A stretch of DNA of 11,149 nucleotides from a virus (Duplodnaviria; Heunggongvirae; Uroviricota; Caudoviricetes), in IMG/VR virus record IMGVR_UViG_2923302340_000010, positions 1-11,149 of that record; one strand, written 5' to 3'. Positions within the stretch are counted from its first letter, which is position 1. Each line of letters starts with the position of its first letter. The notes beneath the pieces were generated by a model that was not told the origin of the DNA, did no database searches, and saw nothing but the letters and a program-made list of their open reading frames with translations. Below, piece by piece: positions 2,042 through 11,149 of this stretch. The position numbers and the translations under genes are program-made.

Positions 2042-2386
2042 TTAATTTTTGCCATCGTCATTTGTGACCGATGCACATGAGGGCATCCAGTCTTCTGAAT
2101 CCTCTGTCAGTATCACGTTTGAACGCAAGCCATGCTTCGTTTTCCGTTTCATATACTCCCTGCCGTATTCCGCCATTGCCCCTGGCATATCCTTACCGAA
2201 GCGTGTCAGTGTTACGGGCTTACCGAATCCGTGTGCCCTCATATACGCCAGATAGGCGTGATAGAGATACCTGCGCGGGCTGAACGGAATAATTTCAGCA
2301 TTACCCACTAACAGGCCATCGCACATTACCGACGACATGAGATAGCCGCAGAAGTCCACCAGCGAATCGCCCTCGCGTTTTATCAC
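2042..2386 (-). CDS. C-terminal fragment of the P4 alpha-like primase/helicase (putative origin-binding domain), split from the upstream ORF by an in-frame TAG
   Basis: Same reading frame as 2438..3841. The 17 codons between the TAG at 2438..2440 and the GTG at 2386 are open (read-through gives ...LLTRFSD*DEAKRLLYEQQKSEEALVIKREGDS...). The pattern YLYHAYLAYMRAHGFGKPVTLTRFGKDM resembles the conserved C-terminal region of P4-family primases. Weak RBS before the GTG. Confidence 0.6.
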   Translation of the reverse strand: MIKREGDSLVDFCGYLMSSVMCDGLLVGNAEIIPFSPRRYLYHAYLAYMRAHGFGKPVTLTRFGKDMPGAMAEYGREYMKRKTKHGLRSNVILTEDSEDWMPSCASVTNDDGKN

Positions 2387-2437
2387 CAGGGCTTCTTCTG
2401 ATTTCTGCTGCTCATATAGCAGGCGTTTAGCTTCGTC

Positions 2438-3841
2438 CTAGTCAGAAAAGCGTGTAAGCAGGTGGCGAATCACTACCGCCAGCTCTCCTTCTATTTTTTC
2501 AGCCAGCATAGGGTCACGTTCGTTCTCCGGTACAACTTCCGAAAAATTGAATATTACCCGACGACGTGATATCCCACCGCTGCGGTCACTGAATGACATG
2601 GCGTTATTGTTCACCGCCAGCACGACCGCCTGAATGCGTGTTGAGTAGGGGGCTTTATGTTTCGGGTCGATTGCCACCTTATCACCGCCTGTAATGGCCT
2701 TAATCCCTGCACCATCACCAGCGTAACGGGTCATATCCGGCATGATAATCAGCGAAAAGCCAACCACTAACGCACGTTCCCTGGCATCTTCCAGCGCCTT
2801 CATGCTTGCCGATACCGTGTTGGCCTTACCCGCCAGCATAGTGCAAATCTCCGCCATTACGCTTTTACCGCTTCCACCCGGCCCCGTTACCTCAAGAAAT
2901 AACTGCCAGTCGTACCGATTCGCCAGCACCATGAATAACGCCGCCAGTACGCGATCTGCCTTGCGGTCATTCTCAGCCACCGAACGGCGCAACCACTTCC
3001 AGAAATTCGGCGCATGTGTTGCCAGCGTTTCCCCCTCTGCTGGTGGGCTGAAAGGTAATTCACTGGCAATTAACAACCAGTCGTTTTTGTTATGCTCCCG
3101 AAAATTACCAGTTCTGGTATCAAATACCCCGTTACTGAATCCAATCAGGTTACGGGCTGTATTCCCCATTACGGGCAAACTTAACTTCATGGTATCGACC
3201 GCCGATTTGATGGCGTTCTGCGAATAGCTGATTTCCGCATCAATAAAAATCTGCGCCATAGTCCGCTGTAACTCTTTATCCTGTACCGGCTCCCATACAA
3301 CACCGTTGTAGTGGTGAACGGTGTCAGAATCCGCATTGATTGCCAGTTCACCGCCATAATGTGCCAGGAGAACTTCGCCGCGCTGGCTGGCTCCCATCTG
3401 ATTTAGTGCTGGCCTGGGTAGGTCAATATTTTTTGTGGCTAATTTCATCGCTGAAACTTCCCCACTCTCTGCCTGTTCGCGGATCCGTTGCAGGTAGTCG
3501 CGCCAGTTTTCCGGCTCCCGGTCGGTGATACCTTTGTATAATTTCGCGTCCTGTACGCCAGCCAGTGCCAGTTTTTCAGCGATAGCATTGATCTGGATTG
3601 GTTCGATCTCCCCCGCGAGATAGACACGCGCAAAGCGGCGTTCATCGTCGACAATGCGGATATTCGCCAGGTCTGCCAGTTGCTTTGGCCCCAGGTAAAC
3701 AGGTGGTACGTTATCGCCGTGTTTTCGTCCTTCGCTTTCAATCCAGTGTTGAGCATGGGCGTAAGCATCCGTCCCGGCAAAAATGATTACCTCAGTGAAT
3801 TTATCCTTCGGCTGATATTTCAAACTCGGTGCGTTTTTCAC
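2438..3841 (-). CDS. P4 alpha-like primase/helicase (D5/P4-family P-loop NTPase), truncated by an in-frame TAG at 2438..2440
   Basis: 467-aa ORF with Walker A motif GPGGSGKS. GTG start at 3841 is preceded by GGGAGGT and overlaps the stop of the upstream gene (GTGA). Together with 2042..2386 it would make a roughly 600-aa protein. Confidence 0.85.
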   Translation of the reverse strand: MKNAPSLKYQPKDKFTEVIIFAGTDAYAHAQHWIESEGRKHGDNVPPVYLGPKQLADLANIRIVDDERRFARVYLAGEIEPIQINAIAEKLALAGVQDAKLYKGITDREPENWRDYLQRIREQAESGEVSAMKLATKNIDLPRPALNQMGASQRGEVLLAHYGGELAINADSDTVHHYNGVVWEPVQDKELQRTMAQIFIDAEISYSQNAIKSAVDTMKLSLPVMGNTARNLIGFSNGVFDTRTGNFREHNKNDWLLIASELPFSPPAEGETLATHAPNFWKWLRRSVAENDRKADRVLAALFMVLANRYDWQLFLEVTGPGGSGKSVMAEICTMLAGKANTVSASMKALEDARERALVVGFSLIIMPDMTRYAGDGAGIKAITGGDKVAIDPKHKAPYSTRIQAVVLAVNNNAMSFSDRSGGISRRRVIFNFSEVVPENERDPMLAEKIEGELAVVIRHLLTRFSD

Positions 3842-6973: not shown

Positions 6974-7171
6974 TCAGGTAGCTGTTCCGCGTGATTCTGC
7001 AATACGCTGATTAATCCACTCGTCAATTTCACTCTCAACGAAAGCAATCGCTCGCGAGCCAATTTTAACTGATGCAGGAAATTTACCTTGCCCCATAAGG
7101 CGATAAATCCATGCCTTGCTATATCCAGTTCTACGCTGAACTTCTGTTAAACGAATAAGCGTATTTGACAT
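6974..7171 (-). CDS. alpA: AlpA-family phage regulatory protein (MerR-like HTH; excisionase/transcriptional activator type, 65 aa)
   Basis: LTEVQRRTGYSKAWIYRLMGQGKFP...ESEIDEWINQR matches the AlpA/Vis family pattern (HTH followed by EIDEW). ATG at 7171 preceded by GAGGT; TGA at 6974..6976. Confidence 0.85.
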   Translation of the reverse strand: MSNTLIRLTEVQRRTGYSKAWIYRLMGQGKFPASVKIGSRAIAFVESEIDEWINQRIAESRGTAT

Positions 7172-7240
7172 ATATTTACCTCATAACGTCTACTCAATTT
7201 GACGAGGTAATCATGGCACAGAAATAACGAATATTTTCAT

Positions 7241-7385
7241 ACCCTCAGGCCTAATGGTTACCGGAAGGAAATTAACCCTAAGGGTGATGGTAATCGGGAG
7301 GAAATCTACCCTAAGGGTGATGGTAAAATTGACGGGGAAGATAAAAAAATACCCTCAGGGTAACAGTAAATCACCCTCAGGGTAT
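7241..7385. promoter_or_regulatory. Array of palindromic ACCCT(A/C)AGGGT sites upstream of alpA, including a 31-bp tandem duplication
   Basis: Sites at 7275..7285, 7308..7318, 7351..7361 and 7373..7383, with a half-site at 7241..7249. Nearly identical 31-bp units at 7263..7293 and 7296..7326 (GGA(A/G)GGAAAT(T/C)(A/T)ACCCTAAGGGTGATGGTAA). TACCCTcAGGGTA at 7350..7362 is a perfect 13-bp palindrome. Confidence 0.5.
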
Positions 7386-7398
7386 GCGGTATGGTGCG

Positions 7399-8196
7399 TT
7401 AATCCGGCTTTGCGTTCTTTTGGCTGTTGTCTCGGTTAATAGGGCAGGCAGTCCTCTCTATGAGCGTTGCAAGAGCATTACTTGCCCCCCACTGCTTAAG
7501 CTCCCTGGTTATCGCTTCTTGATTTCCCCTGGTGGCAAAATCATTTTCTGGATCGTAATTGGCCCACTCTCTGTTTCTAATCTCAATAGCCTTAGCTAAT
7601 GGGTCTTTATCCCAGTATTTATATAAGTGTATCGGGCGCTCTTGCTCTAACTGCTCTATCCTTGCCCTTAACTCTGCGTTTTCTTTTTCCAGCATTGCGA
7701 TTTGGGATAATAAATCATCCTCTGTACGCAACTCTTTCTTTTCAATATCGCGTCCTTGTGCCTCGTCATTTTCAGAAGAGTTAGCGCCTTCCAGCTTCGT
7801 TAACGCGTCAAGGACATCGGGAAAAATTGCGAAAATTTCACCCCTTATAAATCCAATGTTCTCAAATTCGGGATCTTCCCAATAACCGGACACCAGAAAA
7901 CCATTTTCATCCCTCTCACCAGGTAAACAACCACGTTTCCGAACCGCATTCAGATTTCTATAAAGAACATCATAATCAAATTCATCCCGATACGGGTTAC
8001 AAAAAGATTCCAACAGCTTAAATTCATTTACTGTGTACAGGCGGATATGTTCTCCGTTTATTCTCCTGAGTATCCAAGTTATGACATCTGAAACATCATA
8101 ATCATCACCAGCGACCTTAAGCACGACCTCAAGAAATTCACGTAAAGAAATAAAATCTTTTTTGTATTCGTTTAATTCGGCATGAATATCAATCAT
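7399..8196 (-). CDS. Hypothetical acidic protein (about 265 aa) with central coiled-coil; AT-rich orphan gene between int and alpA
   Basis: ATG at 8196 preceded by GAGGTG (the track start at 8202 is GTG); TAA at 7399..7401. Markedly lower GC than its neighbours. Coiled-coil-like segment LLSQIAMLEKENAELRARIEQLEQE. No catalytic motif recognised. Confidence 0.7.
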   Translation of the reverse strand: MIDIHAELNEYKKDFISLREFLEVVLKVAGDDYDVSDVITWILRRINGEHIRLYTVNEFKLLESFCNPYRDEFDYDVLYRNLNAVRKRGCLPGERDENGFLVSGYWEDPEFENIGFIRGEIFAIFPDVLDALTKLEGANSSENDEAQGRDIEKKELRTEDDLLSQIAMLEKENAELRARIEQLEQERPIHLYKYWDKDPLAKAIEIRNREWANYDPENDFATRGNQEAITRELKQWGASNALATLIERTACPINRDNSQKNAKPD

Positions 8197-8324
8197 ACGC
8201 ACACCTCAGCGTCCTCTACTGTAGTGGCTGTACCAGTCCGTCGAGGTGTACGGATTTTCGGGAGCGACCCTAGACACAGCCTTTTCTTTCGTCGCTCAAA
8301 GTCTACTACTGTATACTCAACCAG

Positions 8325-9539
8325 TCACCCGCATTTTCCGAACTCACCATGCACCACATTTCCGCCATGCTCGAGCGAATCCATATAGTCGGCATACCAC
8401 TGGAGCATCTCCCGGCGACCATCCAGATATTGCGCATGGTTGTATGTGCCACGAATTGAGTTTTTATCGACGTGTGCAAGCTGTGTCTCTATCCACGCGG
8501 TGTTATAGCCCTGCTCATGCAAAATGGTGCTCATGGTGTGCCGGAATCCATGACCAGTAACCTTTCCGTTATAGCCGATGCGTTTAAATACTTGGTTTAT
8601 GCTAGCCTCGCTCATTGTTTTCCTTGGATCATTACGGCCGGGAAACATAAGCGGATAATTGCCAGTTAATTCTTTAATCTGCCCAATAAGCGAAAGAGCC
8701 TGCTTAGACAAAGGCACCACATGAGGGCGACGCATTTTCATCCGTGAAGCAGGTATCTCCCAGATAGCCTTGTTGAGATCGATTTCATCCCATAATGCAC
8801 CGCGCAGTTCGCCAGTCCGCAAACCGGTGATAATCAGTAGACGAGCCGCCATAACAACCAATGCACTTCCTGAGTAACTGGACAATGCCTTGAAAAAATC
8901 AGGTAATTCTTTGGCTGTGAGGAAAGGATAATGATTAGATTCATGACCTTGCATCGCGCTGGTGAGATCCGGTGCAGGGTTATACTCAGCACGTCCAGTG
9001 ACAATTGCATAGCGGAAAACCTCCCCGCATCGCTGCCTCACTTTTTTGGCTTTTTCGGTAGCACCGCGCCCCTCGATGCGCCGCAGCACATTCAGCAGTT
9101 CAAGTGGTTTGATTTCGGCGATTGGTTTTTTGCCAATGTAAGGGAACACATCTTTGTTGAAGGCTTCGAGGATGTCTGAAGCATAACCAGCAGACCATTT
9201 TTTTAATTTGCTGCTGTGCCACTCAAGGGCAATATCTTTGAAGGTGTTGTTTAACTGCGTTTCCCGGGCAATCTTTTCCTCTCGTTTCGCTTCCATCGGA
9301 TCGATACCCCCAGCGATACCCCTTTTAGCTTCTTCACGTTTTGCACGAGCATCAGCCAAGGTAACTTCAGGATACACACCTAGTGCTAACAGCTTCTCTT
9401 TACCAGCTACACGATACTTGAAGCGCCAATATTTTCCTCCACTAGGTTTTACCAAGAGATACAGACCGCCACCATCAGCCAGCTTGTAAGCCTTCTCTTT
9501 TGGCTTGGCAGTGTCTATTTGACGGGCATTGAGTTTCAC
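8325..9539 (-). CDS. int: P4-type tyrosine site-specific integrase (404 aa)
   Basis: N-terminal arm-binding-type region (LNARQIDTAKPKEK...GGLYLLVKPSGGKYWRFKYR), catalytic R in GLRTGELRG, H-x-x-R in HGFRHT, and a C-terminal Tyr in RGTYNH. GTG start at 9539 preceded by GGAGGT. Lies directly beside the tRNA 3' end. Confidence 0.95.
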   Translation of the reverse strand: MKLNARQIDTAKPKEKAYKLADGGGLYLLVKPSGGKYWRFKYRVAGKEKLLALGVYPEVTLADARAKREEAKRGIAGGIDPMEAKREEKIARETQLNNTFKDIALEWHSSKLKKWSAGYASDILEAFNKDVFPYIGKKPIAEIKPLELLNVLRRIEGRGATEKAKKVRQRCGEVFRYAIVTGRAEYNPAPDLTSAMQGHESNHYPFLTAKELPDFFKALSSYSGSALVVMAARLLIITGLRTGELRGALWDEIDLNKAIWEIPASRMKMRRPHVVPLSKQALSLIGQIKELTGNYPLMFPGRNDPRKTMSEASINQVFKRIGYNGKVTGHGFRHTMSTILHEQGYNTAWIETQLAHVDKNSIRGTYNHAQYLDGRREMLQWYADYMDSLEHGGNVVHGEFGKCG

Positions 9540-9614
9540 TTGGGGGTACCTCCACTAAACCGAACAGCAAATACCCCCAAAAGTACCCCCAATTGACTGT
9601 AGATTTTGGGGTAC
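9540..9614. promoter_or_regulatory. GTACCCCCAA repeat set between int and the tRNA (candidate Int arm-binding sites / int promoter-operator within attL)
   Basis: Inverted copy at 9540..9549 (abutting the int start codon), direct copies at 9572..9580 and 9583..9592, inverted copy at 9606..9614. Confidence 0.45.
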
Positions 9615-9705
9615 TTAAGTAGACGTCAAAAGACTAAAAGGGGCATTAATATACTGATTATAAGAGGTTTTTAAATACTTTAGTAGACTTGGGGAGACGT
9701 TAGAA

Positions 9706-9781
9706 TGGTGCCGATAATAGGAGTCGAACCTACGACCTTCGCATTACGAATGCGCTGCTCTACCAACTGAGCTATATCGGC
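9706..9781 (-). tRNA. thrW: tRNA-Thr (anticodon CGU)
   Basis: The reverse complement reads GCCGATATAGCTCAGTTGGTAGAGCAGCGCATTCGTAATGCGAAGGTCGTAGGTTCGACTCCTATTATCGGCACCA: 76 nt, cloverleaf-compatible, anticodon loop TTCGTAA, encoded CCA. Position downstream of proA matches the E. coli proA-thrW arrangement. Confidence 0.95.
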
Positions 9782-9895: not shown

Positions 9896-11149
9896 TTACG
9901 CACGAATGGTGTAATCACCAATGCCGATCCACTTGTAAGTGGTCAGCGCTTCCAGCCCCATTGGGCCACGCGCGTGGAGTTTTTGTGTGCTTACCGCCAC
10001 TTCCGCGCCCAGTCCAAACTGGCCGCCGTCGGTAAAACGCGTAGAGGCGTTAACGTAAACAGAGGACGAATCCACTTCGTTAACAAAACGCTGGGCGTTG
10101 CGCATATCGCGGGTCAGGATCGCATCGGAGTGTTGTGTGCCGTGTTCACGAATATGGGCGATGGCATCGTCAAGATCGCTGACGATTTTAACGTTCAAAT
10201 CTAATGACAGAAACTCATCGTCATACTCTTCGGCTTTAACAGCCACCACCTTCGCGGGGCCTGCCTGCAACTGCGCCAGCGCAGCTACATCTGCGTGTAA
10301 TGTCACGCTGCTTTCCGCCATTTGCTTGCTTAATGCGGGCAGGAAGCTATCGGCGATGTTTTTATTTACCAGCAACGTTTCTACCGTATTACATGTGCTC
10401 GGACGCTGAGTTTTTGCGTTAACGATTACTTTCATGGCTTCAGCGATCTCTGCACTTTCATCAACGTAAATATGGCATACGCCTATACCGCCTGTGATCA
10501 CCGGGATTGTCGACTGTTCGCGGCACAGCTTATGCAGGCCAGCGCCACCACGCGGGATCAGCATGTCGATGTATTTATCCATACGCAGCATTTCACTTAC
10601 CAGCGCACGGTCAGGATTATCAATCGCCTGCACGGCACCCGCCGGTAAGCTGCAGGATTTCAGGGCGTCCTGAATCACCGCCACCGTTGCAGCGTTAGTG
10701 CGACAGGTTTCTTTGCCACCACGCAGGATCACTGCGTTACCGGTTTTCAGGCACAGGGAAGCAACATCAACCGTCACGTTCGGGCGCGCTTCATAAATCA
10801 CGCCAATCACCCCCAGCGGTACGCGACGACGCTCCAGACGCAGACCGCTGTCCAGTACGCCACCATCAATCACCTGCCCCACCGGATCGGCGAGGTTACA
10901 CACCTGACGCACATCATCGGCAATGCCTTTCAGCCGTGCGGGCGTCAGAGCCAGACGGTCAAGCATCGCTTCGCTAAGGCCATTGGCACGCGCGTCAGCA
11001 ACATCCTGCGCGTTAGCGTTGAGGATGATTTTGCTTTGTGCTTCCAGTTCATCGGCGATTTTTTCCAGCACGCGATTTTTTTCGCGGCTGGAGAGTTGCG
11101 CTAATTTATACGAGGCTTGCTTCGCGGCAATGCCCATTTGTTCCAGCAT
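9896..11149 (-). CDS. proA: Gamma-glutamyl phosphate reductase (glutamate-5-semialdehyde dehydrogenase)
   Basis: Full 417-aa ORF: ATG at the window end ([19 protein letters not shown]...), TAA at 9896..9898; aldehyde-dehydrogenase-like throughout; lies beside the tRNA-Thr gene as in enterobacterial chromosomes. Confidence 0.97.

Follow-up and report, generated by a model that had tools for sequence, protein, structure and literature searches.

In the prophage KplE1 (CPS-53), the attachment (att) arm beside the integrase gene combines arm-type sites for the integrase IntS (conserved TAAA) with five TorI boxes set in two blocks (GTTCG, GATCG, GTCCG), and the int promoter (PintS) embedded in this arm, attL, is repressed by both IntS and TorI (Panis et al. 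2010, PMC2951348). Autoregulation has been validated for other co-oriented tRNA-int pairs (PMC2951348). Here we analyze a similarly placed arm in a phage satellite: positions 9540 to 9705 of the 11,149-nucleotide DNA of virus record IMGVR_UViG_2923302340_000010 (the whole stretch is called the window below), where a spacer of 166 nucleotides (nt) separates an integrase gene, int, from the tRNA-Thr gene thrW. According to the original prediction, two repeats in this spacer, GTACCCCCAA and AGTAGAC, are both arm-type sites of the integrase (Int), and the spacer marks the right junction of the element at the tRNA 3' end. Comparison with related elements points instead to two classes of repeat with different binders. 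We estimate the probability at about 75% that the arm is made up of Int arm-type sites (class 1) and of boxes for the small protein AlpA (class 2), in an att site of the lambda, P4, and KplE1 type.

Lambda and P4 each share part of this plan. Lambda has a heterobivalent Int, five arm sites (P1, P2, P'1-3) distributed over two arms, and, lying between core and arm sites, phased sites for Xis, integration host factor (IHF), and Fis. Its Int has an N-terminal domain of another family and lambda int is not autoregulated in this manner, whereas the window shows an Arm-DNA-bind_3 domain, a tRNA target, and an int promoter expected inside the arm. P4, like the element in the window, is a satellite with a core in a tRNA 3' end, an arm-binding Int, repeats that flank the core, and an AlpA-like protein, Vis, that is needed for excision; it differs in gene content and att sequences. 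In P4, which uses leuX, int is reportedly repressed by both Int and Vis.

ARAGORN detects one tRNA gene in the window, tRNA-Thr(CGT), with its 3' end at 9706. This gene, thrW, and int are co-oriented on the minus strand with int downstream. The features that concern class 1 are as follows.

9706-9781, minus strand: tRNA-Thr (CGT), thrW (ARAGORN)
9706-9722, no strand: proposed att core in the thrW 3' end, TGGTGCCGATAATAGGA, repeated at the far end of related islands
8325-9539, minus strand: int, a 404-residue tyrosine integrase with a GTG start (9537-9539) and an N-terminal arm-binding domain (Pfam Arm-DNA-bind_3, Phage_int_M, Phage_integrase)
9540-9549, minus strand: candidate arm-type site GTACCCCCAA, inverted copy, which fills the gap between the Shine-Dalgarno sequence (SD) GGAGG (9549-9553) and the int GTG
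9571-9580, plus strand: candidate arm-type site ATACCCCCAA, a direct-pair member with one mismatch; the 12-nt-spaced pair is conserved in relatives
9583-9592, plus strand: candidate arm-type site GTACCCCCAA, a direct-pair member and exact; far arms show the same pair spacing
9605-9614, minus strand: fourth copy, GTACCCCAAA, with a run of only four C; it falls on unit three (GTACCC, 9609-9614) of hexamer block 2, described below

The GTG start of int is supported by its relatives, which carry ATG at the same aligned codon. Four copies of GTACCCCCAA are indeed present in a rev-fwd-fwd-rev arrangement, the first abutting the int start; two are exact (9540-9549, minus; 9583-9592, plus) and two have one mismatch (9571-9580, plus; 9605-9614, minus). 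All four lie within 9540-9614, against 0.43 copies expected, and none of 200 shuffles reached this number. AGTAGAC occurs five times in the window against 0.55 expected, and five copies were likewise reached in 0 of 200 shuffles. Its positions are 9618-9624, 9682-9688, and, within int, 8836-8842 on the plus strand, and 8301-8307 and 7188-7194 on the minus strand. The predicted list was correct for 9618-9624 and 8301-8307, placed the second copy one position too high (9683-9689), and missed those at 7188-7194 and 8836-8842. Because the motifs are short and two of the four GTACCCCCAA copies are imperfect, chance or composition, such as C-runs in an AT-rich spacer, might be invoked to explain them. 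Neither observed count was reached by shuffling, the positions are conserved in about 70 loci, and motifs are present on both arms of related elements, and we give this explanation practically no weight.

The relatives were collected by a scan of one genome per species, which gave 79 GTDB loci encoding Int proteins of 61-100% identity (individual loci carry L numbers). [quoted passage not shown] Read along the int strand, the tRNA end is followed by hexamer block 1, then by an CCCTTATAAT/WATCAR box and hexamer block 2, and finally by a pair of direct 9-mers, a block of ~22 nt, and an inverted copy of the 9-mer. The members of the direct pair are 12 nt apart at about -55 from the int start, and the inverted copy stands at about -12, between SD and start. 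This rev-fwd-fwd layout of class 1, represented in the window by RTACCCCCA at 9540, 9571, and 9583, recurs in ~70 loci.

The sequence of the 9-mer differs between loci (TGGGGGTAY, TGGGGGCAY, TGTGTATAG, TTGTATAG, TGTTGGTA, TGGGGGCC), and the variants of the arm motif (TACCCCC, TGCCCCC, CTATACAC, and others) change in concert, such that copies within a locus are never mixed. All three copies have the same variant in 66 of 66 classifiable loci (35 T-type, TGGGGGTA; 22 C-type, TGGGGGCA; and 9 GTATAG-type). Only three of the 404 Int residues split T-type from C-type loci, namely residues 29 (L versus E/Q), 50 (L versus R), and 53 (L/V/I versus F), and all three lie within the arm-binding domain. 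This domain is identified by Pfam as Arm-DNA-bind_3 (residues 3-88, E = 3.6e-29), and residues 2-99 align to the arm-binding domains of PDB entries 3ju0 (E = 9e-28) and 3jtz (E = 3e-21); these are domain-only structures from other islands, Erwinia HAI7 for 3ju0 and the Yersinia high-pathogenicity island (HPI) for 3jtz and 3rmp. The core-binding domain of Int matches the CPS-53 structure 2kj8. In a single-sequence model of the N-domain with a predicted local distance difference test score (pLDDT) of 55, residue 29 falls in strand 1 and residues 50 and 53 fall in strand 3. The N-domain of lambda Int contacts DNA with a three-stranded sheet, and the modelled positions of the three residues hint at a place in such a DNA-contacting sheet.

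Arm motif and tRNA target follow separate parts of Int. In L016 and L017-19 the C-terminal parts are 92% identical and the N-domains 66% identical, and the arm motifs are different. The tRNA target follows the C-terminal part (0.78 versus 0.63 identity).

If the class 1 repeats are Int arm-type sites, they are expected on the opposite arm of the element as well. Near-identical E. coli islands of ~14.5 kb (EC5) and ~18.5 kb (MB49) occupy the interval from thrW to a yagP remnant, and hence the window begins within the island and the other end lies beyond position 1. Far ends were recovered for seven relatives (EC5, MB49, IMT5155, C. amalonaticus, L024, L027, and L062), and the first three served as stand-ins for the far end of the window's element. 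Identity to the window is 98.9% for the int region of EC5, 92.7% for int of MB49, and 97.4% for the island of the avian pathogenic E. coli (APEC) strain IMT5155. No complete E. coli genome was found to carry an identical island, the best matching 94.6-97.4% over ~80% of it. The E. ruysiae locus L004, with an Int that is 100% identical, stops before the far core; in NCTC9113 (L002), where the island is broken by insertion sequence (IS) elements, no far end was found within 27 kb; and the far core lay inside the 10-kb flank in only 4 of 68 GTDB loci.

The core recurs at the far end as TGGTGC-GATAATAGGA, a 16/17-nt repeat, in EC5, MB49, IMT5155, and L009, and as an exact 18-mer in L024 and L027. 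On the tRNA side, homology to E. coli genomes that have other islands at thrW starts again at 9700-9705. Located 60 nt inside the far core of EC5 are two copies of ATACCCCCA, 12 nt apart, which is the spacing of the copies at 9571 and 9583; the 9-mer TACCCCCAA is found four times in 41.7 kb of EC5, and every copy is in one of the two att arms. In MB49 and IMT5155, too, a direct pair spaced by 12 nt lies in the far arm, ~60-65 nt inward of the core, and the DNA between core and pair differs. All four GTDB far arms have two direct copies, 12 nt apart and ~62-65 nt inside the core, that match the motif of the locus or a close variant of it: GGGGGTAC and GGGGGTAT in L009, GGGGGCAT and GGGGGCAC in L024, TGTGTATAG twice in L062, and a mixture in L027. 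An arm motif on both sides that differs from the core, with the core duplicated at the element ends, is the arrangement of an att site for a heterobivalent integrase. To judge from the core repeat and the far arms of relatives, 9540-9705 is the int-proximal att arm of the satellite, or attL in the KplE1 nomenclature, and the predicted junction at the tRNA 3' end is borne out. The proposal for the arm motif also stands, because GTACCCCCAA-type motifs are present on the opposite arm and in related elements.

Other details of these att regions were recorded as well. The far cores are at 6932-6946 in L001, ~7923-7938 in L003, 4799-4814 in L084, and 16594-16608 in L009, and the same 1-nt deletion relative to the tRNA copy is seen in the far core of three E. 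coli strains and Citrobacter amalonaticus. APEC IMT5155 (L084, 4309-4900) has a tandem array at thrW, where the satellite far arm is joined via the core to the int-proximal arm of a second int. This second integrase gene is truncated and lies beside the vat island; its remnant arm keeps the hexamer boxes and has lost the direct arm-site pair. In a few loci the int-tRNA spacer has insertions of ~10, 30, or more nt, some with extra arm-site copies (L026, L030, L055, L057). The ~22-nt block that follows the direct pair and precedes the inverted arm site, within which 9555-9570 reads TTGCTGTTCGGTTTAG on the int strand, sorts by tRNA target: every Thr locus has GTTCGGTCTAG, irrespective of arm motif, and the Arg loci have GTTCAATGAA. 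The block weakly resembles the T-arm of the target tRNA.

The inverted copy at the int start also allows an explanation at the RNA level. GGGGGUA in the int 5' untranslated region (UTR) would pair with UACCCCC and hide the spacer between SD and start codon, thereby controlling translation, and the concerted changes among copies would be compensatory. A transcript of 9525-9600 from the minus strand is predicted to fold with 9571-9580 paired to 9540-9549 (-25.8 kcal/mol), and inverted copies that change together necessarily keep such pairing. Yet the z-score of the fold is only -1.97, with 6 of 200 shuffles folding at least as well, and a hairpin needs a single upstream copy, whereas it is the 12-nt-spaced pair that is conserved. 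The far-arm pairs covary too, with no inverted partner, the arm motif tracks residues of the Int N-domain, and the copies may not all be transcribed. Class 1 is taken to be neither an RNA hairpin nor a local operator, because matching sites are present at island ends 7-18 kb apart. We consider the RNA explanation improbable, and a hairpin in the int 5' UTR may add a translational layer at most.

The copies at 9540, 9571, and 9583 are thus, with high confidence, Int arm-type sites, as suggested by their presence on both arms, their conservation in relatives, and their covariation with Int. Support for the original prediction does not extend to the fourth copy. At 9605-9614 the sequence reads TTTTGAGGGAC in MB49 and is variable in relatives, no TGCCCC occurs there in C-type loci, and it is probably not a conserved arm site.

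The second class of repeats follows different rules. AGTAGAC corresponds to GTCTAC(T) on the int strand, and in general form the repeat is a hexamer, [GA]TC[TA]A[CT], that recurs with a 10-nt phase in two blocks. The relevant features are these.

9673-9698, minus strand: hexamer block 1, adjoining the core, with GTCTCC (9693-9698), GTCTAC (9683-9688), and GTATTT (9673-9678)
9599-9634, minus strand: hexamer block 2, proposed boxes for AlpA as recombination directionality factor (RDF), with GTCTTT (9629-9634), GTCTAC (9619-9624), GTACCC (9609-9614), and ATCTAC (9599-9604)
8301-8307, minus strand: AGTAGAC box just past the int stop and upstream of the int-alpA RNA, at a position shared in relatives
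8213-8280, minus strand: int-alpA RNA motif (Rfam RF02996; 45.5 bits versus a gathering score of 35.8), located after the int stop and ahead of the open reading frame (ORF) 7399-8202
7399-8202, minus strand: 267-residue ORF without family match
7188-7194, minus strand: AGTAGAC box that directly precedes the alpA SD, enclosed by a short inverted repeat and in the opposite orientation to the arm hexamers
6974-7171, minus strand: alpA, a 65-residue Phage_AlpA family protein (Pfam PF05930, E = 2.4e-19) and the proposed binder of the GTCTAC boxes

Block 1 has hexamer places at offsets of 18 and of 28, counted from the tRNA end, and each is filled in 36 of 68 loci; in block 2, those at -34, -24, and -14 from the arm pair are filled in 55, 31, and 58 of 72 loci. 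In some loci every one of these places carries GTCAAC, which replaces GTCTAC in concert. The switch is independent of arm-motif type and of tRNA target, and the 40 loci with GTCTAC are not distinguished from the 13 with GTCAAC by any column of the Int alignment. AlpA, a member of the PHROG class 'excisionase and transcriptional regulator', mostly sorts with it: AlpA subfamily I goes with GTCTAC in 36 loci versus 1, and subfamily II with GTCAAC in 6 loci versus 1. In two SeC-type GTCAAC loci, genes resembling subfamily II are located at the far ends. Upstream of alpA, the box reads GTAGAC in subfamily-I loci, including the window, and GTTGAC in subfamily-II loci. GTAGAC is also found no more than 70 nt past the int stop in 23 of 74 relatives, where it is often doubled at a spacing of 10 nt.

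The region upstream of alpA (7172-7210, minus) contains an inverted repeat, CCTCGT...ATGAGG, that includes the SD and encloses the GTAGAC box; loci with AlpA subfamily II have the equivalent structure CCTCTCC GTTGAC ... GAGAGG. A 31-nt imperfect inverted repeat (8284-8314 and 9675-9705, 77% complementary) brackets int, because the GTCTAC-box regions at the two ends of int are oppositely oriented. GTCTAC was also considered as a core-type Int site and rejected, given that this hexamer is found alongside Thr, Arg, Gly, and Ser targets alike.

The original prediction, in which all repeats including AGTAGAC are arm-type sites of Int, has in its favor that both motifs are over-represented in the att arm and that some integrases recognize more than one class of arm site. 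The independent variation of the two motifs among loci speaks against it, as does the fact that three N-domain columns split the arm-motif types while none splits GTCTAC from GTCAAC loci. No hexamers are seen in the far arms of EC5, MB49, and IMT5155; in the near arm they are phased by 10 nt in two blocks like TorI boxes, and they reappear at a distance from any core, in the promoter regions of alpA and int-alpA. AGTAGAC varies independently of arm motif and Int residues, mostly follows the AlpA subfamily, recurs near alpA, and lacks a counterpart on the opposite arm; its assignment to Int was not upheld, and a single set of integrase sites is an unlikely account of the arm.

A second alternative assigns the hexamers to a host factor or to some other protein of the island, for instance the product of ORF 7399-8202 or an AntA-like protein. 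The association with AlpA is confounded by phylogeny and has exceptions, and AlpA did not regulate Pint in the island EcCICFT073 (PMC6092414). A host factor, on the other hand, would not explain concerted switches between GTCTAC and GTCAAC within Enterobacterales, and the 267-residue ORF, which has no family match, is absent from the MB49 island, which keeps the boxes. Moreover, the box upstream of alpA switches with the AlpA subfamily, and the equivalent boxes of KplE1 bind the RDF TorI (PMC2951348). A binder other than AlpA seems unlikely. The pattern favors, somewhat better than evenly, GTCTAC hexamers as boxes for AlpA acting as excision factor and activator rather than as integrase sites; our confidence is held at this level because few lineages carry AlpA-II with GTCAAC and because L014, L047, and L048 are exceptions. 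Neither an AlpA box nor the present arm sites were found described in the available text of PMC6092414, PMC10111431, and PMC11773190.

The division into two classes is consistent with the layout of the IntS family. Int shares 49% identity with the IntS-type integrases found in Sf6, KplE1, and HK620-like phages. On the int strand of Sf6 attP, the far arm is GGGTAAAAT-agc-GGGTAAAAT, followed by ~60 nt and the core; after the core come GTTCG ... GTCCG, then GTTCG-n5-GTTCG-n5-GATCG, then TTGACA; and the near arm is GGGTAAAAA-gtg-GATAAAAT, then TTACCC and TTTTACCC abutting the ATG. KplE1/Sf6 and the window have in common a co-oriented tRNA-int pair with int just downstream, a spacer large enough for attL, and, in order, two blocks of RDF or RDF-like boxes, a direct pair of arm sites spaced by 12 nt, and inverted copies (one in the window) at the start codon. 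The KplE1/Sf6 far arm, like the far arms of the window's relatives, has two direct sites with 12-nt spacing, ~60 nt away from the core. The words themselves differ. The arm motif is RTACCCCCA in the window and GGGTAAAAT in KplE1, the boxes are GTCTAC and GTTCG, and the targets are thrW and argW, respectively. After the pair, the window has one inverted copy and the ~22-nt block, whereas KplE1 has two inverted copies. The small protein of the window is of the Phage_AlpA family and is encoded downstream of int, whereas that of KplE1 is of the TorI/HkaC type and lies across the core. Finally, KplE1 is a prophage and the window's element a satellite with putative sites. A match in plan with KplE1, despite different words, supports the assignment of class 1 to Int and of class 2 to a small excision protein.

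Several observations weigh against this two-class reading. Kinship among the loci inflates the counts. The association of AlpA-II with GTCAAC comes mainly from one clade (L021-L028) plus the two SeC-type loci, L014 breaks the AlpA-box correspondence, and boxes are mixed in L044, L047, and L048. The far arm of the window's element lies beyond the window; the far-arm evidence comes from islands with 93-99% identity in int, and L027 mixes GGGGGTAT and GGGGGCAT in its far arm. The structural placement of residues 29, 50, and 53 comes from a low-confidence model. In the window the promoter hexamers at the position equivalent to KplE1 are weak (CCAAAA, TACTTT), and the only match in a promoter scan lies elsewhere. 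To these may be added that AlpA did not change Pint in EcCICFT073 (PMC6092414). EcCICFT073 resembles the window in that int, alpA, and primase have one direction (Fillol-Salom et al. 2018, PMC6092414). Since its AlpA was reported there to have no effect on int expression, the role of the boxes at the int promoter is uncertain. The same text states that PICI AlpA (from phage-inducible chromosomal islands) activates its own promoter and that AlpA over-expression induces the PICI, with excision and uncontrolled replication, for which int and pri are needed (PMC6092414). These data fit boxes that act in excision and at PalpA.

A mechanism can be proposed on this basis. The N-terminal arm-binding domain of Int would bind the three RTACCCCCA sites, that is, the direct pair and the inverted copy; with three near sites and two far-arm sites, a reconstituted attP would have five arm sites. 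While the N-domain holds arm sites, the C-terminal domains would hold the core in the tRNA 3' end, and Int bridging arm and core would build the intasome for integration and excision. AlpA, polymerized on the phased boxes between core and arm sites and perhaps aided by IHF, would bend the int arm and lead to excision. AlpA would also act at the boxes that precede alpA and the int-alpA leader, where it would switch on its own operon. Occupancy of the arm by Int, and possibly by AlpA, would keep int expression low, as in KplE1.

The int promoter must lie in the 166-nt arm, and therefore Int occupancy should limit int expression. A consensus promoter scan of the arm yields one weak match, TTTAAA-16-TATATT at 9675-9648, and fewer matches than in shuffles. 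Many relatives have TTGAAA-N18-TAYNTT/CATAAT at the KplE1-equivalent position, overlapping the last box and the first arm site, with TTGAAA present in 30 of 72 loci. Negative autoregulation of int, proposed by analogy and also raised by the original prediction, is slightly favored; we infer it rather than observe it because the promoter hexamers of the window are weak and its sole scan match is at 9675-9648. A tentative IHF site lies between the two hexamer blocks.

9647-9659, minus strand: putative IHF site (consensus WATCARNNNNTTR, match AATCAGTATATTA)

The IHF consensus has three matches in the window versus 0.83 expected. In relatives, only the WATCAR half is kept in position, in 20 of 68 loci, and no other relative has the full consensus.

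Taken jointly, the two classes raise the prospect, for which we assign somewhat less than even odds, of two specificity codes: one by which three Int residues set the arm site, and another by which GTCTAC and GTCAAC are the boxes of two AlpA subfamilies. In the first code, L29/L50/(L,V,I)53 would specify TACCCCC, E or Q29/R50/F53 would specify TGCCCCC, and M50 would specify CTATACA. A module comprising the N-domain plus five arm sites would then be exchanged among integrases independently of the tRNA-targeting part, and islands that are co-resident or in tandem at one tRNA would gain mutually orthogonal recombination machinery. In the second code, GTCTAC versus GTCAAC would be the operator and RDF box of two AlpA subfamilies of Gram-negative PICIs, and the same box would link alpA self-activation to excision. 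Neither code was found described in the PICI and KplE1 papers compared. The codes predict that a three-residue switch in Int would go with a one-base change in five sites (TACCCCCA to TGCCCCCA), and that GTCTAC and GTCAAC boxes could be swapped in a corresponding manner. For a common E. coli/Enterobacterales satellite family at thrW, the outcome is a base-by-base map of the recombination arm that sets Int sites apart from probable AlpA boxes. The map could help to annotate island ends, to predict cross-talk where islands lie in tandem, and to engineer orthogonal integrases. The biology itself is that of the lambda/P4/KplE1 paradigm and will not surprise a specialist; the two predicted codes are the modest added value.

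The remaining genes agree with a satellite integrated at thrW. To the left of the tRNA is the island, where every gene is on the minus strand; to its right is proA.

9896-11149, minus strand: proA (ORF); the E. coli annotation at this locus is tRNA-Thr / proA / proB / phoE (the thrW locus)
2438-3841, minus strand: D5-type primase, which together with an AntA-like protein follows alpA

The order int-alpA-primase in a single direction is the signature of Gram-negative PICIs (PMC10111431, PMC6092414). Such islands measure ~10-19 kb and occupy a specific att site; in the window int, alpA, and primase are co-directional, and the EC5 and MB49 islands fall within this size range. By this gene order, the element is a Gram-negative PICI-type phage satellite, integrated in the thrW 3' end.

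The primase region (2042-3841, minus) is split into a 467-residue ORF (D5_N plus DUF5906) and a 114-residue ORF (the Pox_D5 C-terminal part). In EC5 and IMT5155 the primase is a single gene of ~600 residues, and a frameshift or stop may be present in the window's copy. Between ORF 7399-8202 and alpA, 7239-7386 contains five ACCCT[A/C]AGGGT palindromes, including a 33-nt tandem duplication (7254-7319). These look like operators of some regulator, and similar palindromic sequences are found upstream of alpA in L013 and L015.

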